Origin: Spirochaetales bacterium
GTDB lineage: Bacteria; Spirochaetota; Spirochaetia; UBA9216
Direction of reading: 5' to 3'
Assembly: GCA_016839055.1 (NCBI GenBank)
Contig: JAEKNX010000001.1
Location: forward strand, 303,693 to 367,692
Length of the DNA: 64,000 bases
Shown: positions 152 to 35,883 of the stretch, piece by piece
How positions within the stretch are numbered: position 1 is the first letter of the stretch
How the letters are laid out: the number at the start of each line of letters is the position of its first letter
Made by a program: the position numbers and the translations under genes
Notes under the pieces: model-generated
Databases searched by the model: none
What the model was told of the DNA's origin: nothing
What the model saw: only the letters and a program-made list of their open reading frames with translations

Positions 152-1312
152 GTGAATTCATTTAATTATTTTATACCTACAAAGGTTTTATTCGGACCTG
201 GAAAACTGAATGAACTGGCTAAAGAACCTCTTCCCGGAAGCAGGGCTTTAATCGTTGTAAGCGGCGGAACATCCATGAAGAAATACGGATATCTTGAGAG
301 GGTGCAGGGACTCCTGAAGCAGCAGGGCGTCGATTCTGTTGTCTTTGACAAAATACTTCCTAATCCAATTCTTGCTCATGTCACCGAAGGAGCACAACTT
401 GCGAAGGCTGAAAAATGCGACTTCATTATCGGTCTCGGAGGCGGAAGCAGTATCGACTCTGCCAAGAGTATTGCTGTCATGGCAAAGAACTCCGGTAATT
501 ACTGGGATTACGTTCACGGCGGCAGCGGCAAAGGTCAGCCAATAAAAAACGGAGTTCTTCCGATTGTAGCAATAACTACTACTGCAGGAACCGGAACAGA
601 AGCGGACCCGTGGACTGTGATAACTCATGAAGAGCGAAATGAAAAAATTGGATTCGGTACAGAGGCAACTTTTCCGACTCTCTCGATTGTCGATCCTGAG
701 CTTATGGTTTCAGTTCCTCCACATCTTACCGCATATCAGGGATTCGATGCTCTCTTTCATGCTGTTGAGGGTTATATAGCTAATATAGCAAGCCCGGTAA
801 GTGATGGGTTTGCTCTCTCTAGTATCGAGCTTATCGCAAAATCGCTTGCGGCTGCTGTAAAAGACGGGAGTAATATCCAGGCGCGAACAGATATAGCGCT
901 TGCGAATACTCTTTCGGGCTTTGTTGAATCAACATCTTCATGTACTTCAGAGCACTCTATGGAACACGCAATGAGCGCCTTCTATCCTGCTCTTCCTCAT
1001 GGCGCGGGGCTTATTATGCTCTCTGAGGCTTACTTCAGTTTCTTTGAAGATAAAATTCCCGAAAAATTTGCCCGAATGGCATCGGCCATGGGAATGGAAG
1101 CCGAACCCGGGAATTTTGTAAAAGCCCTCATGAAGCTTCAGAAGGACTGCGGCGTTGATCAGCTTAAGATGTCTGATTATGGGATAAGTAAGGAAGAAAT
1201 CGGAAAGCTTGCCGAAAACGCGAAGTTCTCGATGGGCGGATTATTCGACATGGACAGCTATTCTCTGAGCATGGCAGAAACTGTCTCCATAATGGAAGCG
1301 GCATATAAGTAG
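152..1312 (+). CDS. Iron-containing (group III) alcohol dehydrogenase
   Basis: 386 aa with the Fe-ADH family hallmark GLGGGSSIDSAK and a C-terminal His-rich metal site (HAVEGY..., HSMEHAMS, LPHG). GTG start at 152 is preceded by a GGAG RBS. Confidence 0.85.
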   Translation: MNSFNYFIPTKVLFGPGKLNELAKEPLPGSRALIVVSGGTSMKKYGYLERVQGLLKQQGVDSVVFDKILPNPILAHVTEGAQLAKAEKCDFIIGLGGGSSIDSAKSIAVMAKNSGNYWDYVHGGSGKGQPIKNGVLPIVAITTTAGTGTEADPWTVITHEERNEKIGFGTEATFPTLSIVDPELMVSVPPHLTAYQGFDALFHAVEGYIANIASPVSDGFALSSIELIAKSLAAAVKDGSNIQARTDIALANTLSGFVESTSSCTSEHSMEHAMSAFYPALPHGAGLIMLSEAYFSFFEDKIPEKFARMASAMGMEAEPGNFVKALMKLQKDCGVDQLKMSDYGISKEEIGKLAENAKFSMGGLFDMDSYSLSMAETVSIMEAAYK

Positions 1313-1701: not shown

Positions 1702-2199
1702 ATGAGTAAAAAAAATATGATTGAGGCTGTAGCGGAAGGTATAAAAGGGGAACTCGACGGTATATCAATATATGAAGCGGCAGCCGAAAGAAGTCTGGGA
1801 GAAATTAAAGAATTTTTTCTGGATCGGGCAGCTGAGGAAAAGATGCATTATAACTGGCTTGCGAGCTATTATCGGAAATTGATGAAAGCTGAAGATGCAG
1901 ATGTAGATCTTCTTCCAGGTGTTCTACCCGATAAACCAAGCCCGATAATAAGCGTTGAATTTCTTGAACGAATAGGCTCAGATAGTTTCCTTAGTGCCGC
2001 TATTTCCTCTTCGATTCTGCTTGAGTTAAATGCTATTGATCATTATAGAAAAAGCGCTGAAATTTCAGATGATCTCGATGTGAAAATGCTTTTTACGGAG
2101 CTTGCTGACTGGGAGAAAGATCATTATGAAATGCTGCTGAAGATCCAGGAAGATTCCCGACAGAGCTGGTACAATGCTCAGAGTTTTGAACCTTTTTAA
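1702..2199 (+). CDS. Rubrerythrin/ferritin-like diiron four-helix-bundle protein (no rubredoxin domain)
   Basis: 165 aa with two ExxH motifs (AEEKMHY, WEKDHYE) and the N-terminal EGIKGELDGISIYEAAAE region typical of rubrerythrin-like proteins. A good RBS GGAGG lies upstream. Confidence 0.6.
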   Translation: MSKKNMIEAVAEGIKGELDGISIYEAAAERSLGEIKEFFLDRAAEEKMHYNWLASYYRKLMKAEDADVDLLPGVLPDKPSPIISVEFLERIGSDSFLSAAISSSILLELNAIDHYRKSAEISDDLDVKMLFTELADWEKDHYEMLLKIQEDSRQSWYNAQSFEPF

Positions 2200-2432: not shown

Positions 2433-2462
2433 TTGACAGATCTCAAAGAAGCAAGTTATGGT
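2433..2462 (+). promoter_or_regulatory. Candidate sigma70-like promoter of the AOR operon
   Basis: TTGACA, an 18-nt spacer, then TATGGT (TATATA follows), about 110 nt upstream of the GTG start at 2576. Confidence 0.3.
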
Positions 2463-2575: not shown

Positions 2576-3238
2576 GTGATTGAAGAAAAGGAAACAATTT
2601 TAGATCAAAAGGTTACTCGTCGGGATTTTCTCAAGATATCAGGTATGTCTGTATTGGGAATATCGGCGGTATCATGGCTATTTCCCGGATGCAGCAATGC
2701 TGTAAATGACGAAGTGATGTTATTTGAGAATGCGTCGGGAGTGATCGTTCACATCTCCAATAGATGTACAGGCTGTCTGTTATGTGAATCTACATGTTCG
2801 GTAGTTAATGACGGAAAAGCAAGTCAGACCACAGCAAGAGTGAAGATCAGCAGGAACTTTGCATATGGCCCTGAGGGAGTCACGGGGGCTTGGTGGAATA
2901 ATCCCGGCGATATGGGTAATTTTAAACTGGTGGCGGAAACCTGCCGGCAGTGTGAAGTTCCCGCATGTGCTCTTGCCTGTCCGGAACAGGCTATTTATCA
3001 GGATAAAAAGACGGGTGCGAAAATTGTTGATGCCGAGAAATGTATTGGCTGTGGTACCTGTACCGCCGCTTGCCCTTGGAATATTCCTACTGTTGATCCT
3101 GATTTAAAGGTTTCAACCAAGTGTGTTTTATGTCATGGCTACCCCGGCTGTGTTTCAACATGTCCGACAGGAGCTCTTAATTTTGTGACCTGGGAAGATG
3201 CTATACAGAAGTATAAAGAGCATTTCAAGGTAAGCTGA
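2576..3238 (+). CDS. Tat-signal 4Fe-4S poly-ferredoxin electron-transfer subunit (YdhX/AorA-like)
   Basis: 220 aa. N-terminal twin-arginine signal TRRDFLKISGMSVLGISA. Several CxxCxxCxxxCP ferredoxin motifs (CTGCLLCESTC, CRQCEVPACALACP, CIGCGTCTAACP). Sits directly upstream of the AOR gene. GTG start with a GGAAGGA RBS. Confidence 0.75.
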   Translation: MIEEKETILDQKVTRRDFLKISGMSVLGISAVSWLFPGCSNAVNDEVMLFENASGVIVHISNRCTGCLLCESTCSVVNDGKASQTTARVKISRNFAYGPEGVTGAWWNNPGDMGNFKLVAETCRQCEVPACALACPEQAIYQDKKTGAKIVDAEKCIGCGTCTAACPWNIPTVDPDLKVSTKCVLCHGYPGCVSTCPTGALNFVTWEDAIQKYKEHFKVS

Positions 3239-3278
3239 AGAGCATCGACTGAACAATAAAAACACATAGGAGAAAGAC

Positions 3279-5396
3279 ATGGCAATTAATGGCGGATGGG
3301 CAGGAAAAACTCTTAGAGTAAATCTGTCTACAGGCAATATAACTACAATAAATACAGAAAATTTCAAGAGATATATCGGTGGAATGGGCATTGGCTACAA
3401 GGTTCTATGGGATGAAGTTCCTGCCGGAACAAAGGCTTTTGATGAAGCAAACAAAATCGTATTCGGTGTAGGTCCTTTGACAGGAACCGGAGCAATTTGT
3501 TCAGGAAGAACAAATATTACAAGTCTTCTTCCCTCAAACCCTTACAATGCAGTAAGTGACAGCCACATGGGTGGACATTTCGGAGTTGAACTCAAGTATG
3601 CCGGATGGGATGCTATCATTGTTGAAGGAAAATCATCCAGACCCGTATGGCTCAAGATTGTTAATGATAAGGTAACAATAGAAGACGCAGGACTGTTTTG
3701 GGGGAAGGGAACCTTCGATACCATAGCCGGAATTACGGCAATGATGGGACAGGAAAGCCAGGTAGCGGCTATCGGTCAGGCCGGTGAGAATCTTGTAAAT
3801 CTCAGCGTTATCAGAACCGGTCCTAGCCACTCAGCCGGAGGTCATGGAGGAGTTCTTGGCTCCAAGATGCTGAAAGCCATCGGTATTATGGGAAGCGGCG
3901 CTGTTAAAATTGCCGGCGACAAGATGAAATGGCATGAGCTGAATCAGTATACTCTCAGCATAGTCGGCGCAAATAATCAGCATGTTGTTCCGCGGACACC
4001 ACAGCCCTGGGCGGAATACAATCATCCCGGAAGCCGATGGACGGCTAAAGAAGGATTATATTGGGAAAAAGCAGATCCTCCTATTGAGACAGGAATCTGT
4101 ACACCGGAAGAAAACCATAAGATCGGCTTCCGGACAATGAAATCAATGCTTGATATTGGTAAAAATGGGCCTAAGTATACGGTGAGAATGGGCGGCTGCG
4201 CATCCTGTCCGATTCGATGTAAATCACATCTCGAAGTTCCTCAACTAGAGAGGTATGGTGTTCCTACTCATGTGGCTAACACCTGTATGGGATTCTATAC
4301 TCCATGGGGCGTTATTGCTCCATTTTCCGGTAATAAAGCCAATGTCCCGGGTGAGTCTGAAGATGATTCACTGGTAATCGCCAAGGCGCTCGGCACATAT
4401 ATAGCGGATGATTATGGTGTCTGGGGAAACTACGGCCAGATAGGACGCGACTTTCACTGGACTTATAAGAATGATGTCCTGAAAAGAGTTCTTCCCGCAG
4501 CTGAGTACAACAGCATAAACTGGGAACAGCTCAAGGCTGGAGATCCTGAGTTTTTCAAGGATTTTTATCGTCGCATAACTTTTAAGGAAGGAGAACTCAG
4601 CCATTTAGGTGACGGAGCTTTCCAGATTTCAGAGAGATGGAACCTCGGTGAAGACTATTGGACATACAAGGGAAATAAACTCTGGACCAAAATGGGATAT
4701 CCAGTTCATCATAGTAATGAATCTGACGGTCAGGTCGGCGCTGTTATCAGTGTTCTGTTCAACCGGGATGCTCAATGTCATACGCACCAGAATTTTATTG
4801 GAAGCGGACTCCCGACTGATCTGCAGAAGGAAATAGCCGCCGAGATGTGGGGCGGGCCGGAAGCCATTGATGCTCCTGCTGATTATAAACCCATGACCAG
4901 AGCAAAGGCTAAATTCGCTAAGTGGAGTGTTGTCAGGAATCTTCTCCATGATAGTCTCACCGTATGTAACTGGATGTGGCCCTTCATAACCTCACCGCTT
5001 AAGGATAGAAACTATCGTGGTAATACTGCTCTTGAATCACTCTATTATACAGAGGCCACAGGAGAGACTATTACTGAAGATGAGCTAGACCTCCAGGCGG
5101 AAAGACTCTTTACCCTTCACAGGGCTCTTACTGTCAAGCAGATGGGTACCGTCGATATGAGAAACAAGCATGATCAGCTTACCGGCTGGCAGTTTGATAT
5201 GGATCCCGACAAGAAGGCCTTCACCCCTGGGACTATCAAGCTTGACAGGGACGATTTTGAAACAACACTTACGATGTTTTATGAAGAGATGGGCTGGGAT
5301 GCTAAGACAGGTTCTCCTACAAGGGCTACACTAGACAAGCTCGGACTCGGATATGTAGCTGACGAGCTGGAAGTTTTGAAGCTTCTTCCTGTCTAG
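3279..5396 (+). CDS. Aldehyde:ferredoxin oxidoreductase (AOR) family tungsto/molybdo-pterin enzyme, YdhV-like long form
   Basis: 705 aa. The N-terminal MAINGGWAGKTLRVNLSTGNIT domain 1 and the overall pattern match the AOR family (AFOR_N plus AFOR_C). Its length (~700 aa rather than ~605) and the adjacent Tat ferredoxin mirror the E. coli ydhX-ydhV arrangement. Confidence 0.85.
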   Translation: MAINGGWAGKTLRVNLSTGNITTINTENFKRYIGGMGIGYKVLWDEVPAGTKAFDEANKIVFGVGPLTGTGAICSGRTNITSLLPSNPYNAVSDSHMGGHFGVELKYAGWDAIIVEGKSSRPVWLKIVNDKVTIEDAGLFWGKGTFDTIAGITAMMGQESQVAAIGQAGENLVNLSVIRTGPSHSAGGHGGVLGSKMLKAIGIMGSGAVKIAGDKMKWHELNQYTLSIVGANNQHVVPRTPQPWAEYNHPGSRWTAKEGLYWEKADPPIETGICTPEENHKIGFRTMKSMLDIGKNGPKYTVRMGGCASCPIRCKSHLEVPQLERYGVPTHVANTCMGFYTPWGVIAPFSGNKANVPGESEDDSLVIAKALGTYIADDYGVWGNYGQIGRDFHWTYKNDVLKRVLPAAEYNSINWEQLKAGDPEFFKDFYRRITFKEGELSHLGDGAFQISERWNLGEDYWTYKGNKLWTKMGYPVHHSNESDGQVGAVISVLFNRDAQCHTHQNFIGSGLPTDLQKEIAAEMWGGPEAIDAPADYKPMTRAKAKFAKWSVVRNLLHDSLTVCNWMWPFITSPLKDRNYRGNTALESLYYTEATGETITEDELDLQAERLFTLHRALTVKQMGTVDMRNKHDQLTGWQFDMDPDKKAFTPGTIKLDRDDFETTLTMFYEEMGWDAKTGSPTRATLDKLGLGYVADELEVLKLLPV

Positions 5397-5411
5397 GTTT
5401 TAAGGATTAAA

Positions 5412-5969
5412 ATGTCTGAAGTAAAAGCGGATGAGACCGAACGTCTCATCCGTGACAAAATAGTAAGTCTTATCAGAGATAATTCAGCTAAGGGGGTAGT
5501 TTCTTCATTGAAGAAACTACAGACCAGCGCTTCCGATTGTGGAGATCTTTCCGGTTTTTACGGAAAGATCTCTCAACATACTGATTGTTCCGATATAAAG
5601 GAGATCTCAGGAGGCGACGGGCTCTACTATTACAGCAGTGGACGGATGTCAGATAGTTATGCAAAGTTAGCGGTGATGCTCGAGGAAAAGGATCTGCTTA
5701 ATTTAATAGTTTCTACTATTAGAGATGAAAGCAGGATCTATCCGAGGACAACTGCGGCCGAGGTATTTATTGAGGCTCCGTATTCAATACCTCAGGAAGA
5801 TATGAATGAATTCCTTAAAATAATTGAAACAGATGAGCGGTTTCCAGATATTGATAGTTGTCGGACGTCTATTGATTCAGTATATCTTTACTCAACGGAT
5901 TACATTCCTAAAGCTCAGGCGGAATATCTCAGTGAATGGGATGCAGTAGGTCAATATGAAAGTCAGTAA
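5412..5969 (+). CDS. Hypothetical protein, possible AOR-operon accessory/chaperone
   Basis: 185 aa, no recognised motif. Translationally coupled between the AOR gene and the FdhD-like gene. Confidence 0.4.
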   Translation: MSEVKADETERLIRDKIVSLIRDNSAKGVVSSLKKLQTSASDCGDLSGFYGKISQHTDCSDIKEISGGDGLYYYSSGRMSDSYAKLAVMLEEKDLLNLIVSTIRDESRIYPRTTAAEVFIEAPYSIPQEDMNEFLKIIETDERFPDIDSCRTSIDSVYLYSTDYIPKAQAEYLSEWDAVGQYESQ

Positions 5970-6612
5970 GTCTGTAAAACCAGAGCATCTTCCACTTGTT
6001 GCGGAAGTAAAATTCCAGATGTTTATAAATGGGATTTATTATTCGGATTTTTTATGTACGCCAGATTCTATAACTGAGCTGGTTACGGGTAATCTTTATG
6101 TAAACAGTAATATTACAGCGATTGAGGATATTGAAAAAATATGTATAAACGGTTATAAGATTGATGTAATCGTGGCCGACACCGAAGGCCGAACGGAACG
6201 GGCGAAGACTTCAGGTGAATTTTCGCCGCCCGGGCTTGAAAAGCTGATAGAGTTTGCAAAGTTAATGTTTGATAGAGCAGCGATTTACAAAGAGTATGGC
6301 GGAATACACTGTAGTGCTCTGTCTGATGGAATAAATCTTATTGCTTTTAATGAAGATATTGGCAGGCACAATGCTTTTGACAAGGTTGTCGGAACAGCCC
6401 TGATGAAAGATTTCGAGCTAGATAAACTTATTTATATTACATCGGGCAGAGTTAATCTTGAAGTTATGAATAAAGCTGTGGCTTGCGGGATTCCATTAAT
6501 AGTGTCCCGTAGTATAATGTCGAGCGCCGCTTTTGATCAGGCTGAAAAAAACGGGACTATGGTTATTGGTAGAATATTAACTGCCGAACCGTTTGTCTAT
6601 GAAGGGAAATGA
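5956..6612 (+). CDS. FdhD/NarQ-family (sulfurtransferase-like) cofactor-maturation protein, short form
   Basis: 218 aa. N-terminal VNG..TP.SI.EL..G-like region and a C-terminal GIHCSAL...DIGRHNAFDKVVG...SGRVNLEVMNKAVACGIPLIVSRS block characteristic of FdhD. The catalytic Cys-pair loop is not evident. Confidence 0.65.
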   Translation: MKVSKSVKPEHLPLVAEVKFQMFINGIYYSDFLCTPDSITELVTGNLYVNSNITAIEDIEKICINGYKIDVIVADTEGRTERAKTSGEFSPPGLEKLIEFAKLMFDRAAIYKEYGGIHCSALSDGINLIAFNEDIGRHNAFDKVVGTALMKDFELDKLIYITSGRVNLEVMNKAVACGIPLIVSRSIMSSAAFDQAEKNGTMVIGRILTAEPFVYEGK

Positions 6613-7376
6613 TACTTATGTCGGAAAAGACTATTGATATAAATTCTACAATGGCATTTAAGGCGCACTTTAAAGTTCTTAAAAGAACTCTTATGGTATC
6701 TCTAATAAGCCTTACCTGTGGCAGCATTGTCTGTTTTATATTCTTTGAACCTATAGTTGAGTTTCTTTACACCCCTTTCCTGGGGATTGAAGGCAATGGG
6801 ACAAATGATACCCTGTTTATAAACAATATCTTTGAGGGTTTCTTAACAAAACTTAAAATTTCGATTTTATCCGGATTTACACTGAGTTTCCCGATAATCT
6901 TGTTTAAAATTCTGCAGTTCATTTTTCCTGCCTTGGGGAAAAAAGAAAAAAAGGTTATACTTTATACTCTTTTAGTGAGTGCTGTATTAGTATTGGTGGG
7001 TTTTTATTATAGTTACTATATGATCCTGCCGCTGACAATAGAATTCTTCACCAGTGTAGGGTTTCTGCCAGATAATGTCGGCATCCTGCTTAACTACCAG
7101 AACAACATAATATATATTTTTAAGTTCATTTTTATGATTATGGTCACCTTCCAGTTTCCCGTTTTAATGGAGATGCTGATGGTTACAAACATTATTGAGA
7201 GGAGCACTCTGATTGGGTTAAGCCGTTTTATAATTGTAGGTGTTTTTCTGCTGTCGGCATTGATAACGCCTCCGGATTTTATTTCCCAATGCATGATAGC
7301 CTTTCCAATGGTTTTTTTGTACTTTCTTGCTATTTTTATTGCAAAAGTTTTTAGATTCGGTGAGAAGAGGGAATAG
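6609..7376 (+). CDS. tatC: Twin-arginine translocase subunit TatC
   Basis: 255 aa polytopic membrane protein. The N-terminal H(F)KVLKRTL resembles the TatC HLxELRxRL motif, and the C-terminal LITPPDFISQ matches the TatC TPPDxxSQ motif. Overlaps the upstream gene (ATGA). Confidence 0.8.
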   Translation: MILMSEKTIDINSTMAFKAHFKVLKRTLMVSLISLTCGSIVCFIFFEPIVEFLYTPFLGIEGNGTNDTLFINNIFEGFLTKLKISILSGFTLSFPIILFKILQFIFPALGKKEKKVILYTLLVSAVLVLVGFYYSYYMILPLTIEFFTSVGFLPDNVGILLNYQNNIIYIFKFIFMIMVTFQFPVLMEMLMVTNIIERSTLIGLSRFIIVGVFLLSALITPPDFISQCMIAFPMVFLYFLAIFIAKVFRFGEKRE

Positions 7377-7381
7377 TAATA

Positions 7382-7726
7382 ATGAACGGCAATGGACTTG
7401 GAATAAGCGAATTATTAGTTCTCCTGGTTGTAATACTTGTTTTTATAAAACCGGCTGACATGCCTAAAGCGGTTCGATTAATCGGGAAAGTATGGGCAAA
7501 ATTTTATCTTTACTTCTCAATGTTTAAGAGGGAATTTAGAAGGCTAGAAAATGAGATTGGTATTGAAGACGAGATGAAGGAAATACGGGCGATAAATGCA
7601 CAGTTGAAAGGTGAAGTTGTATCACTTAGAAATAGTGTTAATATAATTGAAAAAAAAGAAATTGATGAGATGAAAAGTAATGCTGATAAAAGCATAGATC
7701 AGGATAACAAATCTAAGGAGAAATAG
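7382..7726 (+). CDS. tatB: TatA/TatB-family protein (TatB-like, extended charged C-terminus)
   Basis: 114 aa. N-terminal GISELLVLLVVILVFIKPADMPKAVRLIGK is the TatA/B transmembrane-plus-amphipathic-helix signature, followed by a long charged tail as in TatB. Confidence 0.7.
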   Translation: MNGNGLGISELLVLLVVILVFIKPADMPKAVRLIGKVWAKFYLYFSMFKREFRRLENEIGIEDEMKEIRAINAQLKGEVVSLRNSVNIIEKKEIDEMKSNADKSIDQDNKSKEK

Positions 7727-7727
7727 A

Positions 7728-7892
7728 ATGCTTGGATCTACAGAGATTATTGTAATTGGTGGTGTGATTGTCTTATTATTTGGGGCAAGTGCTATTCCCA
7801 AATTTGCTAAATCATTAGGCCGTGCCAAGAAAGAATTTAAAGACGGCGTGAATGAGGGACTGGAAGAGCAGGATAAAGAAGAAAAGAAATAA
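7728..7892 (+). CDS. tatA: Twin-arginine translocase subunit TatA
   Basis: 54-aa ORF, too short for the ORF track. MLGSTEIIVIGGVIVLLFGASAIPKFAKSLGRAKKEFKDGV... is a canonical TatA. It starts 1 nt after the tatB stop, with an AAGGAG RBS inside the tatB 3' end. Confidence 0.7.
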   Translation: MLGSTEIIVIGGVIVLLFGASAIPKFAKSLGRAKKEFKDGVNEGLEEQDKEEKK

Positions 7893-7979
7893 TATTATTA
7901 CAGATTATCTAATTTTTTACTTGTTATGATATAGTCTTACTAGTTAAATATGATATTTCACGATATTGAGAGGTTTTAT

Positions 7980-10181
7980 ATGGAAAATAAAAGAATAGTT
8001 ATCCTCGGCGGAGGATATGCCGGGATTGAAGCGGCGAAAAAATTAAATAAAAGATATAAGAAGAATGATAAGGTAGAGATTACCCTCATAGATAAAAATA
8101 CATATCATACTCTCATGACTGAACTTCATGAGGTGGCCGGCTCCAGGGTTGAGCCTGATTCAGTGATGGTAAGTTATGAGAGAATTTTTTCCGGCACCAA
8201 GGTAAATGTTGTTACCGATTTCATCACCGGCATTGATTTTGAGACACAGAAACTCAAATCAGATAAGACTGCCTATGATTATGATTATCTGATTCTTGGA
8301 ACAGGCGGTGCTCCGGAATTTTTTGATATTGACGGAGTTCAGGAAAACTCTTTTTCACTCTGGTCTCTTGAAGATGCAATGCGTATACGAGAGCATTTTG
8401 AAGAACGATTCAGACTGGCTGCAAAAGAACCTAATCCGGAAATCAAAGCGAGAATGCTTACCTTTGTTGTAGCCGGCGCCGGATTTACAGGTATTGAGCT
8501 TATAGGTGAATTTCTTGAACGTCGTGATGTTCTATGCGTAAAATATCATATTCCTGTTTCAGAAGTGAAAATGATAGTCGTGGAAGCTCTCGATACTGTG
8601 CTTCCGATTATAGAAGAGAAACTCCGCAATAAAGCAGTTAAATACCTGGAAAAGAAGGGAACGCAGATTATTCTTGGCGCGCGCATAACGGGTGCTGCCG
8701 AAGGCAAGGTTCTATTAGCCGACGGTTCGGAAATCGCTACAGATACCTTCATCTGGACCTGTGGTATTCATGGTTCCGAGTTTACCTCCAGGATTGATCT
8801 TACAAAGGGACACACCGCAAGAGGCGAGTGCAGCAAAGCATCAGCTGATGGTATTCACGGGATGAGCGGTTGTCGTTTTGAGGATGACGAGCGCTACATT
8901 GTCGGAATACGGGGAAGAATTCTTGTAAATGAATATATGCAGACAGTGGATTATAAAAATGTCTTCGCAGTTGGAGATAACCTCTGGTTTGTCGAGCATG
9001 AGAAAGTTCTTCCTCAGATTGTAGAGACGGCCCTCCAGACTGGAGAGACCGCTGCACTAAATATCATCGCAGATATAGAAGATGCTGAAAAGCATGCGTT
9101 CAAATCTAACTTCCATGGTTTCATGGTTTCCATAGGCGGCAAGTATGCCGTGTCTAACGCCGGCGGAATGAAGACCTCCGGGTTCATGGCTATGGTAATG
9201 AAGCATTTTGTGAATCTGCATTACCTTTTCGGGATTGCCGGTGTAAATTCTGCCTGGGGATATCTGAAACATGAGTTTTTCGAGATGAAAGATAGAAGAA
9301 CTTTTATCGGTGAACATCTTTCATGGAAGATCCAGGGATGGTGGACAGCCCCGCTTAGGGTTTGGCTTGGTGTTATGTGGCTGACCGAAGGACTTAATAA
9401 GATAGGAGAAGGCTGGCTTAACTTTTCTGCTGGAACAAAATCAAGCTGGATGTTCAGCCAGGGAATTATACAAAGGGGTGTTAAAGCTGCCGCAGATGGA
9501 GTCAGCGCAGCGTCCGGGGCTGTAGAATCCGCCGGTGTTTCCCATGGCGACATGACGGCTGTTTTTGACGCTGCCGCAAAGAACGCATATTCCTTAACAG
9601 ATACCGTAGCCGCAGCCTCCGGCGCGGCTGAAGAAGTTGTCGCCGACACCATCAGTGCCGCCTCTGGCGCAGCCGAGACAGTGGTCAGCGCGGCAGCTGA
9701 TGCGGTGAGCGCCGCGTCGGGCGCTGTTGCGGATACAGCCTCACAAAGCCTGGAAGCAGTCGGTCATGTGTTCGGAAAACTCTGGGATACTGCCAATAAC
9801 ATCATTCCCTATGATTCTGCCTTTGTAACATGGTTCAGGGAGACATTTATGGACAGCCTGATGGCTTACATCCATTTCCCCGTTTTTCAGCTTATGATAG
9901 TCGTCATGGAACTCGGTATCGGACTCGCGCTTATAGGCGGACTCTTCACATGGGTTGCTGCAGCGGCTTCAATTGTAATGTGCGCGGTCTTCACCTTCTC
10001 GGGTATGTTCAGCTGGAATCAGGCTTGGTTTGTTTTTGCCGCCTTTCTTATGCTTGGCGGAGCAGGACGAAGTCTCGGTCTTGACCACTGGGTAATGCCT
10101 GCAATCAAGAAGTGGTGGAACGGTACTAAATTCGCCCGACGTACACACCTTTACCTCGGCGAACCAAGACTCAAGAAATAA
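7980..10181 (+). CDS. Type II NADH dehydrogenase-like flavoprotein (NDH-2) fused to a DoxX-family membrane domain
   Basis: N-terminal RIVILGGGYAGIEAAKKL dinucleotide motif and a second GAGFTGIELIGEF motif (two Rossmann folds, pyridine-nucleotide disulfide oxidoreductase class). An Ala/Ser-rich SAASGA repeat linker, then a C-terminal 4-TM DoxX-like domain (FPVFQLMIVVMELGIGLALIGG...). The start is more likely Met-11 (7980, GAGAGG RBS) than 7950. Confidence 0.7.
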   Translation: MENKRIVILGGGYAGIEAAKKLNKRYKKNDKVEITLIDKNTYHTLMTELHEVAGSRVEPDSVMVSYERIFSGTKVNVVTDFITGIDFETQKLKSDKTAYDYDYLILGTGGAPEFFDIDGVQENSFSLWSLEDAMRIREHFEERFRLAAKEPNPEIKARMLTFVVAGAGFTGIELIGEFLERRDVLCVKYHIPVSEVKMIVVEALDTVLPIIEEKLRNKAVKYLEKKGTQIILGARITGAAEGKVLLADGSEIATDTFIWTCGIHGSEFTSRIDLTKGHTARGECSKASADGIHGMSGCRFEDDERYIVGIRGRILVNEYMQTVDYKNVFAVGDNLWFVEHEKVLPQIVETALQTGETAALNIIADIEDAEKHAFKSNFHGFMVSIGGKYAVSNAGGMKTSGFMAMVMKHFVNLHYLFGIAGVNSAWGYLKHEFFEMKDRRTFIGEHLSWKIQGWWTAPLRVWLGVMWLTEGLNKIGEGWLNFSAGTKSSWMFSQGIIQRGVKAAADGVSAASGAVESAGVSHGDMTAVFDAAAKNAYSLTDTVAAASGAAEEVVADTISAASGAAETVVSAAADAVSAASGAVADTASQSLEAVGHVFGKLWDTANNIIPYDSAFVTWFRETFMDSLMAYIHFPVFQLMIVVMELGIGLALIGGLFTWVAAAASIVMCAVFTFSGMFSWNQAWFVFAAFLMLGGAGRSLGLDHWVMPAIKKWWNGTKFARRTHLYLGEPRLKK

Positions 10182-10249
10182 ATAATTGCGGCATCATTTC
10201 GGCGGCCTTTATCCAGGCTGCCGGAGTCGCCTTTCTTCAAAGGAATATT

Positions 10250-11224
10250 ATGCAAACGGTTTCAAGTTCAATTACTAATATACAGATGACTGAAGATCTG
10301 AAGCAGGTAAGGACGGTAATTGACGATCTCATAAAAGATACACCTGATATGATTCATGATATGATTTCCAATCTGCTCTCATGCAGTGGAAAGATGCTCC
10401 GTCCTATGATGGTAGTCCTTGCCGGTCGTTACGGCGATTTTGAGGCAGAAAAGATCTATTCTCTGGCAGCGGCAGTTGAGCTTCTTCATAATGCAACCCT
10501 TGTTCATGATGATATTATAGATGATGCTGCGCTCAGACGCGGTTTACCTGCAATTCATACAATACATGGTTCAAAGCTTGCAATTCTCGTTGGAGATTAT
10601 CTATTTTCAACATGCTTCGTGCTGGCGGCCAAAAACTCGAAGATTCAACATTATGACAGCCTCGCGCAGGCTGTTGCCCGAATATGCGAAGGGGAAATCC
10701 TTCAGGATACAGGGAAATTTGTCTTCGACCCCAGTGTTCGTAATTATAAACGAAGAATTGCCAGCAAGACAGCGGTTCTCTTTTCCCTGAGCCTCTATCT
10801 CGGCGCGAAGGAATCTGGTTGCAGTGAGACTGTGTGCTCTGTTTTTATACGAATCGGATACAATGTCGGAATGGCGTTTCAGATAATTGATGATATCCTG
10901 GATTTTACAGGTGATCCGAAGAAAATAGGAAAACCCGCATTTGGTCATGACCTGTCAGAGGGTATTTACACCCTGCCTCTGATTCTGGCTCTCAAGGACG
11001 GGGACGCGCAGCTTGAAAAGATGATGCGGAGACAGAGTCTCTCAAGGCGAAGAAGAAAAAAAATCGTCGGGATAGTAAGCATTTCGAGGGGGATGGAGGA
11101 CGCAAGAGGGGCCGCGGCTCTTTATTCCGAAAGGGCACTCAGGGAAATCGGACGGCTTGATGACGGATATACAAAAGATCAGCTGCTCAGCCTGACCTCG
11201 AGGCTGGTGTCGCGGGAATACTGA
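10250..11224 (+). CDS. Long-chain polyprenyl diphosphate synthase (IspB/HepT-like trans-isoprenyl diphosphate synthase)
   Basis: 324 aa with the first DDxxD motif (LVHDDIIDDAALRRG) and the second (FQIIDDILDF). Confidence 0.85.
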   Translation: MQTVSSSITNIQMTEDLKQVRTVIDDLIKDTPDMIHDMISNLLSCSGKMLRPMMVVLAGRYGDFEAEKIYSLAAAVELLHNATLVHDDIIDDAALRRGLPAIHTIHGSKLAILVGDYLFSTCFVLAAKNSKIQHYDSLAQAVARICEGEILQDTGKFVFDPSVRNYKRRIASKTAVLFSLSLYLGAKESGCSETVCSVFIRIGYNVGMAFQIIDDILDFTGDPKKIGKPAFGHDLSEGIYTLPLILALKDGDAQLEKMMRRQSLSRRRRKKIVGIVSISRGMEDARGAAALYSERALREIGRLDDGYTKDQLLSLTSRLVSREY

Positions 11225-11246: not shown

Positions 11247-11474
11247 CTACTCGAGGAAGGTTTTAATCCTTGGATGATCAGGATTACTGAAGAGCTTTTC
11301 TGTGGAAGCTCTTTCTCTTATTTCTCCCTCGTCTATGAATACGACCCAATCCGACACTTTTCGAGTGAAGGTCATCTCATGGGTAACTATTATCATTGTC
11401 ATATTGTCCTCTGCAAGGTTCTTGATGACCGAGAGAACCTCACCTGTTAATTCCGGGTCCAAGGCGCTTGTTGG
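11247..11474 (-). pseudogene. Remnant of an amino-acid ABC transporter ATP-binding protein (C-terminal ~75 codons only)
   Basis: The frame encodes ..PTSALDPELTGEVLSVIKNLAEDNMTMIIVTHEMTFTRKVSDWVVFIDEGEI.., which is the D-loop/H-loop/C-terminus of GlnQ/HisP-type ATPases. It begins immediately after an in-frame TAG. There are no Walker A/B motifs and no permease gene, and it lies directly downstream of the substrate-binding-protein gene. Confidence 0.6.
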
Positions 11475-11494: not shown

Positions 11495-12304
11495 CTACCT
11501 TGCGAGGAGGATGTCCTCAGCAAACCATTTCTTTGAGATCTCGGCCGCAGTTCCGTCGGCGGCCATCTCGTCAATGACGTGATCAACGGCATGAATGAAG
11601 GCCAGTTCATCCTTTCGAAATCCAATTGCGTATTCCTCGGCGGCAAAGAAATCTTCTGCTATCTTATATATACCGGGTTTCCCGGAGAGGTAGTACCGGC
11701 CGAAAATCTCATCTACGACGACGGCATCAATCCTTCCGACTTCAAGATCCATCAGCGCCTGAACATTGTCCTGATATTTGACCAGTTCGGTAAAGCTTTC
11801 CATTACAGGGGTGTAACTCTTGACGGCATCTTCCGCGGTGCTTCCTAGCTGTATGCCGATCTTTTTGGCTGCGAGATCCGATTTCATACTGATTCCGGAT
11901 CCTGGCTGAACAATGATTATCTGCTTGTTTGCAATATAGGGCTTGGAGAACTCAATCTTCTCCTTGCGCTCATCAGAGATAGACAGTCTGTTCCAGATTA
12001 TATCGATGTTTCGGTTGTTAAGATCGAGTATCTTGGCATCCCAGTCTATAGGCTGAAGTTTCAGTTCAACTCCGAGTCTTTTGCAGACTTCCTTTGCCAA
12101 ATCAATATCGAATCCCGCTATTTCTCCGTTTGTATCCCTGAACCCCATCGGCGGGAAGCTGTCGTTTAGACCGATGATGATTTCACCCTTTTCCATAATA
12201 TACTTGAGAGATTTATCTCCGTTTGATGCTGATTCCTGAGTTCCTGCGGCAAATAGCATAGTTGTCAGCAGAAGTACAGCGAGGATAGAAGCGCTTCTTT
12301 TCAT
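11495..12304 (-). CDS. Amino-acid ABC transporter substrate-binding protein (family 3 SBP)
   Basis: 269 aa. Signal peptide MKRSASILAVLLLTTMLFAAG. Polar amino-acid SBP fold motifs (IIIGLNDSFPPMGF, IDIIWNRLSISDERKEKIEFSKPY). Confidence 0.85.
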   Translation of the reverse strand: MKRSASILAVLLLTTMLFAAGTQESASNGDKSLKYIMEKGEIIIGLNDSFPPMGFRDTNGEIAGFDIDLAKEVCKRLGVELKLQPIDWDAKILDLNNRNIDIIWNRLSISDERKEKIEFSKPYIANKQIIIVQPGSGISMKSDLAAKKIGIQLGSTAEDAVKSYTPVMESFTELVKYQDNVQALMDLEVGRIDAVVVDEIFGRYYLSGKPGIYKIAEDFFAAEEYAIGFRKDELAFIHAVDHVIDEMAADGTAAEISKKWFAEDILLAR

Positions 12305-28107: not shown

Positions 28108-30315
28108 ATGTACAACATTGAAGAATCCCTTAGTGACCAAATCCTGTCATTTAAAAGTTCGCGGCCGACCGTTATATTTACCGAAGCATTAGACCCCCGG
28201 CTTCTTGAAGCCGTTTGTTATTTAACCCGATTTCTGCGGCCCGTTCTTCTCGCGCCTGAAAAAGATGTCAGGAAGGTATTCAGCAGCGAGCTGAGTCACC
28301 TGGAAAAAAGTCGGATAGAATTTACAATTTCTGAATCTAGTTTCGTCGAAATAAGTAAAAACAAAGAACTTGTTGAAGAATTCGCGGCCGAATATCAGAA
28401 GACTCTCGAGGCCGAGGGTGAGAAGATCTCTCATGCTGATGCCGCTGGGAAAATGCTCGACCCCTGTTTGTTTGGAATCTTTGCCGTAAGGCTCGGTCAC
28501 GCCGACATGGTTGTCGGCGGAAGTACACATGAACCGGTCACGTATTTTCGCCATGTGCTGAAATTTCTGAAGAAGAAGCCGGTACAGTCGGAAACCGGGA
28601 TATTTGTTCTTCCTGATGATCATCCTGAAAACATTTATTCAAATAATATAATTGTCTTCGGAGATGTTGGTGTAAACGGTACAATGACTCCCGAAGTTCT
28701 GGCGAGAATAGCCGTAGATACCTGCTCAATCGCCAGGAATCTTTTTCCTGATAATGTTCTGCCGAGGATACATGGCGCCATTGTCTCGTACTCAAATCAC
28801 GGTTCGGATGAAGGTCCGTCACCGGACCTTGTAAAGAAGGCAACAAAGCTCGTTCCGGATCTCCTCAAGGAGTATGCTCAGGAGGATCCGAGGTACAGCA
28901 CCATATCAATCGAAGGTGAAATCAAGGCTAATGTAGCCCTCTCTGAGCGTTCGGCTATGTATTACAACAAGGAAAATGAGGATGGATGGAAGGGCCCTAC
29001 TAATGTAATCATCTGTCCTAACCTCGATATGGGAAATCTACTTTATCATCTTTACGCAACAAGATTCCCCGATGCGAAGAAATTTACAATCATTTCCGGG
29101 GTAGGATTCTCGGCGGTTGATCTGGCCAAAGACTGTTCCTCAGAGGATATTCGGCTTGGAGTCAAGGCGCCTATTCTAAATCTTCTTCAGAAAGAGGGAT
29201 GGACAAAGACCCGTCGTGATACCTTCTTCAGACGCTATAAGGTTCTGGCAATTAATCCTGGATCTACATCGACGAAAGTCAGCGTATATGAAGGTGATTA
29301 TGAGCTTTTCACCGAAGAGCTGCAGCATACGGCAGAAGATCTCGCGCCCTATGAGGGCAAGGCTGTTGCCGAGCAGTTTCAGTATCGAAAAGATATGATA
29401 ATGGAGTTCCTGTCTGAAAACGGATTGTCAATAGATGATCTCGACGCAGTCGCCGGACGCGGAGGCCTTGTTCGGCCGATAAAACACGGGACTTACCGGG
29501 TTAATCAGCGGATGCTTGATGACCTTAGGGCCGGCATAGGCGGCGAACATGCCTCAAACCTCGGAGCGCTTATTGCAAATGAGATGGTTGACGGCACTGA
29601 TCTCCCCGCCTTCATAATTGACCCCATCGTTGTCGATGAGGTGGAAGAGAAGGTCAAGATAACGGGCCTTAGTGAACTGAGGCGGTACATAATCAGCCAT
29701 TCCCTGAACCAGATAGCATCGGCAAAGCGGTATGCTGAGGAGCACGAAACCTTTTACGAGAATCTCAACATCATTGTCGCTCATATGGGAGGCGGAATAT
29801 CCGTCGGTGCTCATTATAAGGGCCGATATGTCGATGTCAACAATGCTCTAAACGGGGAAGGCCCCTTCTCACCACAGCGTTCGGGTTCACTGCCTATAGG
29901 GCCGCTCATAGATCTCTGTTTTTCCGGTAAGTACAGCCATGATGAGATGAAAAAGCTCAATAAGGGCAGGGGAGGCCTTATTAACCTTCTAGGTACAAAC
30001 GATCTGCGTGATGTTGAAAAGATGATAGACGAGGGAAATGAGTTTGCCGCCCTTGTTTTTGATGCTCTCGTATATCAGATGTCAAAGGAGATAAGTTCGC
30101 TTATACCCGCCTTCAATGGAGAGGCTCTGGATCAGGTTATTCTTACCGGTGGAATGGCGCGCTCTGAAAAACTGGTTGAAGGAATTACCGCTTCAATCAA
30201 ACTGCTTGGATGCGGAGTTACCGTTTATCCTGGGGAAAATGAGATGTATGCGCTGGCGAAAGGAACTGTCAGGGTTCTGCAGGGCAAGGAAGAGGCCAGG
30301 GAATACAATCCCTGA
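28108..30315 (+). CDS. Fused phosphate butyryl/acetyl-transferase (PTA_PTB) and butyrate/acyl kinase (Ptb-Buk fusion)
   Basis: 735 aa. The N-terminal ~330 aa are a PTA/PTB-family domain (..IVFGDVGVN..). The C-terminal ~360 aa start with the butyrate-kinase N-motif INPGSTSTKVSVYEG and carry ASKHP-family acetate/butyrate kinase motifs (IVAHMGGGISV). Confidence 0.8.
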   Translation: MYNIEESLSDQILSFKSSRPTVIFTEALDPRLLEAVCYLTRFLRPVLLAPEKDVRKVFSSELSHLEKSRIEFTISESSFVEISKNKELVEEFAAEYQKTLEAEGEKISHADAAGKMLDPCLFGIFAVRLGHADMVVGGSTHEPVTYFRHVLKFLKKKPVQSETGIFVLPDDHPENIYSNNIIVFGDVGVNGTMTPEVLARIAVDTCSIARNLFPDNVLPRIHGAIVSYSNHGSDEGPSPDLVKKATKLVPDLLKEYAQEDPRYSTISIEGEIKANVALSERSAMYYNKENEDGWKGPTNVIICPNLDMGNLLYHLYATRFPDAKKFTIISGVGFSAVDLAKDCSSEDIRLGVKAPILNLLQKEGWTKTRRDTFFRRYKVLAINPGSTSTKVSVYEGDYELFTEELQHTAEDLAPYEGKAVAEQFQYRKDMIMEFLSENGLSIDDLDAVAGRGGLVRPIKHGTYRVNQRMLDDLRAGIGGEHASNLGALIANEMVDGTDLPAFIIDPIVVDEVEEKVKITGLSELRRYIISHSLNQIASAKRYAEEHETFYENLNIIVAHMGGGISVGAHYKGRYVDVNNALNGEGPFSPQRSGSLPIGPLIDLCFSGKYSHDEMKKLNKGRGGLINLLGTNDLRDVEKMIDEGNEFAALVFDALVYQMSKEISSLIPAFNGEALDQVILTGGMARSEKLVEGITASIKLLGCGVTVYPGENEMYALAKGTVRVLQGKEEAREYNP

Positions 30316-32073: not shown

Positions 32074-33882
32074 TCAGATAATACTCTCAGCTGTGATTTC
32101 CTCCCAGATCTCCTTAATAGAGTGCTTAACCTTCCGTTTACGATCGGTATAGCTTGTATGAAGAAGTCTGTGAGATTTATGCGACAGAGGTTCTCCGAGA
32201 AAATCCTCGTAGATCTTTTTAATCATCGGATTATTATGGGACTGCCTGACAGGCGCATTGGCGTCTATTGTATATAAGCCCTGCTGTCTTGCTTCCTTGT
32301 TATACTGGTACTCACCCTTGATCCTCGGCTGTCCGCCGCCTGATATGCATCCTCCGGGACAGGCCATGACCTCGATGAAGAGGTATTTGTCTGCCTCTCC
32401 GGTTTTAATTTTTTCAAGGACATTACGGGCGGCCTTAAGACCTGTTGCCATGCCTACTTTTACCTTGCCGTAGTCTCCGCCGAGATCAATTTCAGCTTCT
32501 CTGAAATTCTCAAGCCCGCGGACGGCCTTGATGTCTATCTTATCAAGTTCCTTTCCGTTGACAACAGCATAAAGGGTTCTGAGAGCGGCTTCCATTACAC
32601 CGCCGGTAGCTCCGAAAATGACCGCGGCGCCGGTGTAGTCGCCCATCCATGGGTTGTCATACACTGAATCGGGAAGGTCGGCCAGCCAGACACCCTCACG
32701 CTTAAGCAGCCTTGAGAACTCACGCGTGGTAAGAACAACATCAACATCCGGTTTCCCGTTCTGAGTCATCTCCGGACGTTTTGCCTCTTCCTTTTTTGCG
32801 GTGCAGGGCATTATTGAAACAACCCTCATATTACGGGGATTAATGCCCATTTTCTCGGCAAGGAAGCTTTTTGCTATAGCTCCGAACATCTGCTGGGGCG
32901 ACTTTGCCGAAGACAGATGCGGAATGAGCTCGGGATAATTTTTTTCTACGAAATTGATCCAGCCGGGAGAGCAGGAGGTCATCATCGGCAGAGTTCCGCC
33001 GTTTTTGATCCTGTCTAGCAGCTCGGTACCTTCCTCCATTATTGTCAGGTCGGCCGAGAAGTTCGTATCGAGGATTACATCACCTCCGATTTTGCGGATG
33101 GCTGAAATTATTTTTGCTTCTACAGATTCCCCCGAGAGCATGTGAAACTCTTCTCCCAGGGCAACCCTGACTGCCGGCGCTACCTGGAATACAGTCACAA
33201 TTTCCGGATCATAGAGATAATCAACAACTTCCTCGGTATCGTCCCGGGCGGCAAGGGCTCCTACCGGGCAGACCAGCGTACACTGTCCGCAGCTTACGCA
33301 GTTTGAACTACCGAGAGCCAGGCTGTCTTTTATGCCAATTTCGGTAGTAAGCCCCTTGTCGGTGAAGACGAGGACGTCGGTCTTCTGCACTTCACGGCAG
33401 ACCTCCACACAGCGAAGGCATCTGATGCATTTGCTCATGTCGCGGATTATAGCCGGAGACGAGATTTCCTTCGTTCTACCCCTGTAGAAATGGGGATAAT
33501 TATAATGTGTCTGCTCCAGGCCTACAAACTGGGCTACATCCTGAAGCTCACAGTCGCCGTGTCTGATGCAGGACGCGCAGTCCTGATTGTGGTCGGCAAG
33601 CAGAAGCTCAACCTGCAGCCTTTGACGCTCTCTTACCAGCCTTGTTCGGGTAAGCACCTCCATGCCTTCGGCCATCGGGGTGTCACAGCTGGTCACAATC
33701 TGATGTTCGGGGCCTCCCTTTTTTTTAGTATCAACAAGGCAGACCCTGCAGGTACCGGGAGTATGATTAAGGCATGTAAGAGCACAGAGGGTCGGAATGA
33801 AATGTCCGTGGGCCCTTGCGGTCTGCAGGATAGTATCATTTTCGTTAAATTCGACTTCTTTTCCGTTTATATATCCTTTCAT
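32074..33882 (-). CDS. hydA: [FeFe]-hydrogenase catalytic subunit (HydA), M3-type
   Basis: N-terminal 2Fe-2S and two 4Fe-4S ferredoxin motifs, then H-cluster motifs TSCSPGW, MPCTAKKEE and EVMACPGGCISGGGQP. The start is set at the internal Met (MKGYINGKEV) to remove the overlap with the upstream gene. Confidence 0.9.
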   Translation of the reverse strand: MKGYINGKEVEFNENDTILQTARAHGHFIPTLCALTCLNHTPGTCRVCLVDTKKKGGPEHQIVTSCDTPMAEGMEVLTRTRLVRERQRLQVELLLADHNQDCASCIRHGDCELQDVAQFVGLEQTHYNYPHFYRGRTKEISSPAIIRDMSKCIRCLRCVEVCREVQKTDVLVFTDKGLTTEIGIKDSLALGSSNCVSCGQCTLVCPVGALAARDDTEEVVDYLYDPEIVTVFQVAPAVRVALGEEFHMLSGESVEAKIISAIRKIGGDVILDTNFSADLTIMEEGTELLDRIKNGGTLPMMTSCSPGWINFVEKNYPELIPHLSSAKSPQQMFGAIAKSFLAEKMGINPRNMRVVSIMPCTAKKEEAKRPEMTQNGKPDVDVVLTTREFSRLLKREGVWLADLPDSVYDNPWMGDYTGAAVIFGATGGVMEAALRTLYAVVNGKELDKIDIKAVRGLENFREAEIDLGGDYGKVKVGMATGLKAARNVLEKIKTGEADKYLFIEVMACPGGCISGGGQPRIKGEYQYNKEARQQGLYTIDANAPVRQSHNNPMIKKIYEDFLGEPLSHKSHRLLHTSYTDRKRKVKHSIKEIWEEITAESII

Positions 33883-33892
33883 GGTTGTGCTC

Positions 33893-35875: not shown

Positions 35876-35883
35876 AATTTCTC

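Follow-up and report, generated by a model that had tools for sequence, protein, structure and literature searches.

A probable Class V tungsten/molybdenum oxidoreductase operon with co-encoded Tat genes in a marine spirochaete

Introduction

How could a metal-pterin enzyme that carries no signal peptide come to work outside the cytoplasm, and which genes would travel with it? These questions are raised by a gene cluster at positions 2576-7892 of a 64-kb stretch of DNA (contig JAEKNX010000001.1; the whole stretch is hereafter called the window) from a metagenome-assembled genome of a marine spirochaete of the Spirochaetales. An earlier description made from the letters alone, here called the sequence-only reading, had interpreted the cluster as a long enzyme of the aldehyde oxidoreductase (AOR) family without a signal peptide, a ferredoxin bearing a signal for twin-arginine translocation (Tat), and the translocase genes for their export. 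This core reading was upheld and agrees with the description of the Class V enzymes of the WOR family published in 2026 (PMC13328260). We consider it quite probable that the cluster is an operon complete in itself, encoding a Class V WOR that works outside the cytoplasm with a W/Mo-bis-pyranopterin cofactor, together with its maturation and export machinery.

Results

Gene content and organization of the cluster

The list of open reading frames (ORFs) contains seven + strand ORFs from 2576 to 7892, exactly where the sequence-only reading had placed them (lengths in amino acids, aa):

2576-3238, + strand: ydhY, 220 aa, GTG start, YdhY/WorS-type small subunit
3279-5396, + strand: ydhV, 705 aa, YdhV/WorL-type catalytic subunit
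5412-5969, + strand: ydhW, 185 aa, YdhW family
5956-6612, + strand: fdhD-like gene, 218 aa, FdhD/NarQ fold
6609-7376, + strand: tatC, 255 aa
7382-7726, + strand: TatB-like gene, 114 aa
7728-7892, + strand: tatA, 54 aa

With intergenic spacings of 40, 15, -14, -4, 5 and 1 nucleotides (nt), the seven ORFs show an operon-like packing. For comparison, relatives were scanned with one genome per species, which yielded more than 573 loci. The best 80 were fetched, their ORFs were called, and the loci were searched with the proteins of the window and of E. coli.

The catalytic subunit

The 705-aa protein consists of AFOR_N and AFOR_C domains (Pfam) and is 53% identical to YdhV of E. coli K-12. It matches the YdhV equivalog NF007354 with 1103.5 bits (cutoff 868), residues 3-704 falling on positions 4-702 of 703. 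Because this match spans the whole protein, its length is a family trait; a frameshift or mis-call behind the 705 aa is ruled out by the end-to-end match and by the homologues, which are 693-709 aa long. The protein starts at the conserved N-terminus of the family, with no extension, and for this reason has no signal peptide. A long, YdhV-like enzyme without a signal of its own, as the sequence-only reading had described it, is thus what the locus encodes.

Five cysteines (C307, C310, C314, C336 and C563) are invariant in alignments of 13 and 35 homologues. An alignment to YdhV and Pyrococcus AOR, which had been suggested earlier as a check, located the cluster cysteines: C307/310/314 fall on C288/291/295 of P. 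furiosus AOR and on C299/302/306 of the benzoyl-CoA reductase subunit BamB, and Cys336 aligns exactly with Cys336 of E. coli YdhV. From these positions we infer that C307, C310, C314 and C563 are the [4Fe-4S] ligands of the window protein and that Cys336 is a ligand of Mo or W. According to a 2025 review, Cys336 of E. coli YdhV serves as a further ligand of the metal, one that only BamB shares, as its Cys322; such a cysteine is absent from aldehyde-oxidising AORs and WORs, and the YdhV clade does not have the second-shell residues of the aldehyde-oxidising enzymes (PMC12096430). The equivalence of C336 and BamB C322 rests on this review. HMMER did not align the two residues: the local alignment ends at profile position 332, and C322 lies six positions upstream.

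An AlphaFold2 model of the window protein (predicted local distance difference test score, pLDDT, 90.2) has BamB as its best match in the PDB (4z3w; Foldseek E 1.9e-33, TMq 0.72), although true AORs follow closely (TMq 0.68-0.71). Among the solved WORs, BamB also aligns with the profile over the greatest length (positions 8-332). On the biochemical side, the large subunit of a Cetobacterium somerae enzyme, WOR41L, partially purified and obtained without S, failed to oxidise any of 46 aldehydes (PMC13328260), and E. coli YdhV has no known substrate (PMC9103625); both preparations were incomplete, and these negatives carry limited weight.

As the Cys336 ligand common with BamB is kept, the window YdhV is unlikely to be a classical aldehyde oxidoreductase, and it is more likely to be an oxidoreductase or reductase of the respiratory type whose substrate is not an aldehyde. 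The protein departs from AORs in the strict sense in the presence of Cys336, in its 705 aa and in its Tat-signal partner. With Cys336 invariant, BamB the best match of the model and WOR41L inactive on the aldehydes assayed, the label 'aldehyde oxidoreductase' used in the sequence-only reading is unsafe. The same applies to public sources, which name such proteins 'aldehyde ferredoxin oxidoreductase'; this annotation is probably misleading.

The ferredoxin subunit and its export signal

The 220-aa protein is a four-cluster ferredoxin (Pfam, NCBIfam). It is 41% identical to E. coli YdhY over the full length, compared with 30% to YdhX, and scores 193.6 bits against NF007382, below the cutoff of 213. 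The partner of YdhV is thus an orthologue of YdhY and not of the YdhX-type, as had been supposed. Its four [4Fe-4S] motifs comprise C64/67/70/74, C123/126/131/135, C156/159/162/166 and C183/186/192/196, and these 16 cysteines are conserved in 82 of 82 YdhY orthologues, one position in 81 of 82.

The clear twin-arginine (RR) signal attributed to this poly-ferredoxin is indeed present. The motif T14-R-R-D-F-L-K20 corresponds to the textbook Tat consensus and is followed by a stretch of 18 residues that is weakly hydrophobic, a property it shares with Tat signals: the mean hydropathy is 1.17, and no segment of 19 residues exceeds 1.6. In the form [ST]RR[DE]FLK the motif occurs in 80 of 81 YdhY orthologues (80 genome loci and the window); one locus, L081, appears damaged. 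A six-frame scan of the 64-kb window found no second Tat substrate, the YdhY signal being the sole N-terminal Tat-type signal there.

At the end of the hydrophobic (h) region, YdhY of the window carries a lipobox-like sequence, L35-F-P-G-C39. Measured against the lipobox [LVI][ASTVI][GAS]C, Gly at -1 and Cys at +1 fit, but neither Pro at -2 nor Phe at -3 is typical. A Gly-Cys pair at this place recurs as xxGC in 54 of 80 orthologues, with Cys in 56 of 82 by alignment. The usual forms are LFGC, LLGC, LPGC and LIGC, mostly L-x-G-C, and the lineages without the Cys (Cetobacterium, Halanaerobiales) have AxA-type sites at the same place. This pattern leads us to the inference that signal peptidase II cleaves the Tat signal in the majority of lineages and signal peptidase I in the remainder, and it suggests that YdhY of the window is a Tat-dependent lipoprotein anchored via Cys39. 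The small subunit would then probably be lipid-anchored in most lineages; the description of the Class V WORs makes no mention of lipoproteins or a lipobox (PMC13328260).

YdhY of E. coli K-12 itself deviates at the motif. The protein (gene at locus L001, 9852-10478) starts ...TRLEFLRISGKGLAGLTIAPALLSLLGC. One Arg of the pair, which is nearly universal elsewhere in the family, is replaced by Leu, and a canonical LLGC is kept; in E. coli YdhX the RR pair is intact.

Accessory proteins

The 185-aa protein, listed as unknown in the sequence-only reading, is a YdhW homologue: it matches NF007411 with 121 bits, is 26% identical to E. coli YdhW, and its orthologues carry PF27264 (YdhW_C). The predicted structure (pLDDT 88.8) shows two winged-helix domains and a C-terminal helix. 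The protein is strongly acidic (isoelectric point 4.46) and has no signal peptide. We found no published function of YdhW and propose that it may serve as an assembly or escort factor or as a third subunit.

The presence of an FdhD-like protein, also part of the earlier description, was confirmed by a fold match to PF02634 of 140.4 bits (cutoff 27.2); against the FdhD equivalog TIGR00129 the protein scores 120.5 bits, below the cutoff of 140.9. In an alignment of 52 YdhV-linked FdhD-like proteins with E. coli FdhD, the C121-x-x-C124 loop of the E. coli protein is deleted in the window and its spirochaete clade, and most other YdhV-linked proteins keep the first loop Cys only, as SGCGSG. All of them share a G-G-[IVM]-H-C motif (GGIHC in the window, with Cys119) at a place where E. 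coli FdhD has T-H-A. In E. coli FdhD the loop cysteines carry a persulfide, and the Cys-x-x-Cys loop is reportedly essential for persulfide transfer. Because the persulfide loop cysteines are lost, the FdhD-like protein of the window probably handles or inserts the bis-pterin cofactor for YdhV without sulfurating it. Such an insertion role would fit the fact that no molybdenum cofactor (Moco) chaperone is yet known for YdhV (PMC9103625).

Tat translocase genes

Two members of the proposed tatC-tatB-tatA cluster stand clearly, and the third in part. TatC scores 143 bits against TIGR00945 (cutoff 132.7) and 156.6 bits against PF00902 and has six hydrophobic, predicted transmembrane segments. The 54-aa TatA scores 55.2 bits against TIGR01411 (cutoff 53.9) and 51 bits against PF02416 (cutoff 21). 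For the 114-aa protein in between, the best NCBIfam match is tatB TIGR01410 (E 1.8e-11), at a score below the cutoff of that model, and there is no Pfam match. Its architecture is TatB-like, with one transmembrane helix, a G-I-S-E-L-L start, a K-P-x-x-M-P hinge and a long amphipathic, charged tail. No second tat locus was found in the 64-kb window.

The stretch with the three tat genes (window 6001-8000) has 35% G+C, whereas the 2-kb bins on either side have 42-47%. The composition of membrane proteins could account for this, or else a separate history.

Conservation of the cluster in relatives

To count neighbours we used the 48 loci with at least 3 kb of sequence upstream and at least 3.5 kb downstream, which come from Spirochaetota, Clostridia, Halanaerobiales and Fusobacteria. 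The proteins of the window recur in these well-flanked loci as follows:

YdhW: 47 of 48
FdhD-like protein: 37 of 48
TatA-type protein: 43 of 48
TatC: 31 of 48
TatB-like orthologue: 6 of 48, in the spirochaete clade of the window only

The linkage of tat, fdhD-like and ydhW genes is the rule across these four lineages. Of the 81 loci that encode YdhV in full length, 77 have a high-scoring ORF of the YdhY type that ends at most 200 nt upstream of ydhV, and the exceptions lie mostly at cut contig ends. The complete order Y-V-W-fdhD-tatC-tatB-tatA recurs in Oceanispirochaeta crateris and in marine Spirochaetaceae related to it (L006, L008-L011, L013). Other recurrent neighbours among the relatives are Tup/Mod-type ABC transporter genes, moeA, moaA, xdhC-like and mogA-type genes; no tupABC, modABC, moeA or other Moco genes were found in the 64-kb window.

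Comparison with known systems

Class V WORs comprise a large subunit WorL (YdhV), a small subunit WorS (YdhY) that carries a Tat signal, a transmembrane domain or both, and at least one further subunit, and are predicted to be periplasmic and membrane-associated (PMC13328260). They make up more than 10% of all WOR-family members and 41% of the members contained in UHGP, a catalogue of human gut proteins, and the genome list of clade 41 includes the spirochaete genus Sediminispirochaeta (PMC13328260). The window contains a matching large subunit with Cys336, a four-cluster small subunit with a Tat signal, and YdhW as the further gene. Judged by these genes, the stretch 2576-7892 is a member of the described Class V WORs (YdhV clade, clade 41).

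The closest described counterpart is WOR41LSW of C. somerae, which has an fdhD-like gene, tatAE and tatC downstream (PMC13328260), a gene order that we saw independently in fetched locus L043. Like the window, it combines a WorS/YdhY with a Tat signal, WorL/YdhV and W/YdhW, with fdhD-like and tat genes immediately downstream, and its large subunit is 62-63% identical to the window YdhV. The two differ in several respects. The window has tatC-tatB-tatA with a TatB-like gene instead of tatA-tatC, and no tupABC, moeA or other Moco genes nearby. The Cys loop of its FdhD-like protein is lost, whereas it is kept as SGCGSG in C. somerae; its YdhY signal ends in the lipobox-like FPGC rather than in an AxA-type site; and its cluster is followed by a gene for an NDH-2-DoxX fusion. 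The TatB-like gene with the C-B-A order, the loss of the FdhD loop, the lipobox-like end of the YdhY signal and the adjacent NDH-2-DoxX gene thus appear as lineage-specific features.

The E. coli operon ydhYVWXUT encodes orthologues of YdhY, YdhV and YdhW in the same order as the window. Its YdhV is a bis-Mo-molybdopterin (bis-Mo-MPT) enzyme in which Cys336 and the [4Fe-4S] cysteines match the window position for position. A search for homologues of ydhW, ydhT and ydhU, named in the sequence-only reading, succeeded for YdhW; tblastn of the 64-kb window with E. coli queries found neither YdhU nor YdhT, and YdhX matched only the YdhY orthologue (30%). The window accordingly has no counterpart of YdhX (a second ferredoxin with an RR signal), YdhU (a membrane protein of the cytochrome b type) or YdhT. 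The E. coli operon, in turn, contains no fdhD or tat genes, and in its YdhY the motif is TRLEFLR instead of the window's TRRDFLK, one Arg having been lost.

BamB is cytoplasmic, forms part of the BamBCDEFGHI complex and is only ~23% identical to the window YdhV; the comparison gave no evidence of an aromatic-CoA substrate for the latter. AOR of P. furiosus (PDB 1aor) shares the three-domain fold (TMq 0.68), the N-terminal domain and the CxxCxxxC motif, but with about 605 aa is ~100 residues shorter, is cytoplasmic, and has neither a protein ligand to W nor a Tat-signal partner.

In [NiFe]-hydrogenases, the catalytic subunit has no signal and leaves the cytoplasm together with an Fe-S small subunit that bears the RR signal (HyaA/HybO). 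The YdhY-YdhV pair may hitchhike in a comparable way. Translocase genes encoded together with their substrate are known from phoD-tatAd-tatCd of B. subtilis (PMC3827258); there two Tat components are linked to the substrate, compared with three in the window, which has cargo of another family.

Discussion

Proposed export and maturation route

Taken together, the genes point to the following sequence of events. YdhV would fold in the cytoplasm and be loaded with a [4Fe-4S] cluster, held by C307/310/314/563, and with a bis-pterin cofactor, to whose metal Cys336 would be a further ligand, as suggested by the invariant residues and the published data on E. coli YdhV and BamB. The FdhD-like protein, with no persulfide loop, and the acidic YdhW may assist in cofactor insertion or assembly, for which conserved synteny is the basis. 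By analogy with the L-S complexes of homologous WORs, YdhV would then dock on the four-cluster ferredoxin YdhY. The folded heterodimer would be exported by hitchhiking on the TRRDFLK signal of YdhY through the co-encoded TatC-TatB-TatA, a step to which the signal and the tat synteny conserved across phyla point. Finally, YdhY would probably be cleaved before Cys39 and be held by a lipid anchor on the outer side of the cytoplasmic membrane, in line with the lipobox-like motif in about two thirds of the orthologues.

Several observations weigh against this scheme. In the one attempt at the biochemistry of a relative, with WOR41L and WOR41S both expressed in Eubacterium limosum, the small subunit failed to co-purify with the large one (PMC13328260). 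The 114-aa TatB-like protein scores 44.4 bits against tatB TIGR01410, below the cutoff of 56.5. The form of the lipobox, F-P-G-C with Pro at -2, is unusual, and about one third of the orthologues have no Cys39. The winged-helix fold of YdhW resembles no known Tat or Moco chaperone, and the cluster encodes no quinol-dehydrogenase membrane subunit of the YdhU, NrfD or PsrC type.

Alternative explanations

The translocase need not be private. The tat genes might form a general housekeeping Tat system that lies beside its most prominent substrate, and the set of the window is indeed complete (TatA, TatB-like, TatC) and of ordinary type. In a 2013 survey, ~95% of the Tat-positive species had a single tatC locus, and only 4 Spirochaetes and 2 Fusobacteria species were among those with tatC (PMC3827258). 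These figures fit a private or a sole general Tat system alike, although the rarity of tatC in the two phyla speaks against routine housekeeping, as does the lack of any other ORF with an RR signal in the 64-kb window. Moreover, the ydhYVW-tat linkage is kept in four distant lineages (TatA-type in 43 of 48 loci), which argues for a functional tie rather than chance. We regard a housekeeping role as possible, if somewhat doubtful; it is compatible with the route proposed above and touches only the word 'dedicated'. The manner of attachment may also differ, with the N-terminus of YdhY remaining as an uncleaved, unlipidated, Tat-inserted signal anchor, a Rieske-like helix tether. The non-canonical lipobox and the lack of the Cys in one third of the orthologues would agree with this idea. 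However, the h-region is short and weakly hydrophobic (mean 1.17, nothing above 1.6), in the Cys-less orthologues AxA-type sites for signal peptidase I stand in its place, and the G-C pair recurs in Clostridia, Spirochaetota and E. coli YdhY (LLGC), so that we hold such an anchor to be unlikely.

Two further alternatives concern the enzyme itself. Only YdhY might be exported, with YdhV staying in the cytoplasm with another partner and no hitchhiking taking place. WOR small subunits bind the large subunit beside its [4Fe-4S] cluster (BamBC, A. aromaticum AOR and WOR5 structures), which counts against this option, as does the ydhY-ydhV adjacency in nearly all loci with a full-length YdhV; the exported ferredoxin and the cytoplasmic YdhV would both be orphaned. 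Even with the missing co-purification from E. limosum in its favour, and with some gut Coriobacteriia predicted to have a cytoplasmic, partnerless YdhV (PMC4257093), we judge it very unlikely. No more credit is due to the proposal of the sequence-only reading that a periplasmic aldehyde oxidoreductase and an upstream iron-containing alcohol dehydrogenase (Fe-ADH) form an acid/aldehyde/alcohol redox module, which we regard as highly improbable. It has the AFOR_N and AFOR_C domains and the name given by public sources on its side, as well as the Fe-ADH gene (window 152-1312), which lies 1.26 kb upstream of the operon on the same strand and is also found in the closest relative, L002. Yet among the 80 genome loci and three fetched separately, the Fe-ADH and rubrerythrin-like genes stand beside the cluster only in the window and in L002, a relative with 83% identity, and gaps of 390 nt and 376 nt with terminator-like hairpins separate these genes from the operon. 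The Fe-ADH has no signal peptide and would work in the cytoplasm, a different compartment from that of the enzyme, which is predicted to be exported. The invariant Cys336, absent from aldehyde-oxidising WORs (PMC12096430), and the failure of WOR41L on all 46 aldehydes, albeit partially purified and without S, add to this, as does E. coli YdhV with no known substrate. The module was therefore abandoned, and the Fe-ADH and rubrerythrin-like genes were rejected as members of the system. The rubrerythrin/ferritin-like protein itself (window 1702-2199, 165 aa) has sub-threshold matches to the encapsulin-associated ferritins EncFtn/EncB.

Significance

An exported Class V WOR with its own maturation genes thus remains the preferred reading. 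The tat/fdhD type of cluster has already been described in 2026 (PMC13328260), so that the window adds a clear new example to a known kind of system. The example is clean and minimal, with YVW, the FdhD-like protein and TatCBA and no extra membrane subunits. When L and S are the only parts expressed in another host, as in attempts to date, the set is without YdhW, the FdhD-like protein and the cognate Tat genes, all of which are nearly constant companions of the enzyme. The locus adds a suggestion of genes to co-express; otherwise it makes the biochemistry of Class V WORs no more tractable.

Flanking genes and upstream signals

The 376-nt gap 5' of the operon contains the best promoter-like match of the region, as follows:

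2433-2462, + strand: promoter-like match TTGACA-18-TATGGT, sigma-70-like, 10 of 12 matches

This is weak evidence, promoter-like sites in the region being no more numerous than in shuffled sequence. A palindrome of the CRP/FNR type, TTGACAGATCTCAA (TTGA-N6-TCAA; window 2433-2446), overlaps the -35 element of this match. It was rejected as a conserved FNR/CRP-type site: it occurs in 4 of 84 upstream regions, and the closest relatives are without it.

Downstream, one further gene is possibly co-transcribed with the operon, its membership being uncertain:

7950-10181, + strand: NDH-2-DoxX fusion gene, 743 aa

The gap between tatA and this gene measures 57 nt and contains no terminator-like site, and a 13-bp terminator-like hairpin (10196-10227) lies 3' of the gene. 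The NDH-2 part matches the NDH-2 structure PDB 4nwz with 229 bits. The DoxX-like membrane domain is split by an insert rich in Ala and Ser, and no tandem repeats were found in the DNA under this insert. Relatives with such a fusion, 600-740 aa long, turn up repeatedly and seem to be a family that is still uncharacterised. An NDH-2-DoxX gene occupies the same position in Ca. Thalassospirochaeta (L011, 14618-16852), and an NDH-like gene lies near the cluster in L016 and L022. Next after the fusion gene, the window has a polyprenyl synthase gene (10250-11224), which is found beside ydhYVW also in L011 (16865-17845) and in Anaerosolibacter (L016, 7678-8646; L022, 7751-8719). In O. crateris, UbiD/UbiA/UbiX-type genes lie upstream of the cluster (L003, 4717-7664). 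These neighbours hint that the exported enzyme may be tied to the quinone pool.

A more far-reaching version would see the cluster as a private export-and-maturation unit, in which the only Tat system of the genome serves one Tat-dependent lipoprotein complex, the loop-less FdhD-fold protein acts as a bis-pterin insertion chaperone and YdhW as an escort of the signal peptide or subunit. The co-transcribed NDH-2-DoxX protein would provide a link to menaquinone, giving a fermentative spirochaete a short respiratory chain to a non-aldehyde acceptor. We offer this version as a speculation that is rather unlikely to hold.

The quinone-linked neighbours are noteworthy because the rest of the window reads as that of a fermentative anaerobe. 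The large subunit of an [FeFe]-hydrogenase, which has Fe-S domains in its N-terminal part, is encoded beside a NuoF/GltD-like flavoprotein on the - strand (32074-35929), and together with the glycogen, glycine-cleavage and chemotaxis genes that the window also carries it indicates such a lifestyle.

Beside the polyprenyl synthase gene, a 71-aa ORF on the - strand (11247-11462) looks like the C-terminal end of an ABC ATPase of the amino-acid type and has no Pfam match. It follows immediately on the gene for a solute-binding protein (11495-12304), where neither a permease nor a complete ATPase is encoded, and may be a gene remnant at a rearrangement junction. Further along, a 735-aa ORF (28108-30315) joins a phosphate acetyl/butyryl-transferase (residues 16-348) to a partial domain of the acetate kinase family (538-702), which would represent an unusual fusion of two acetate-forming steps.

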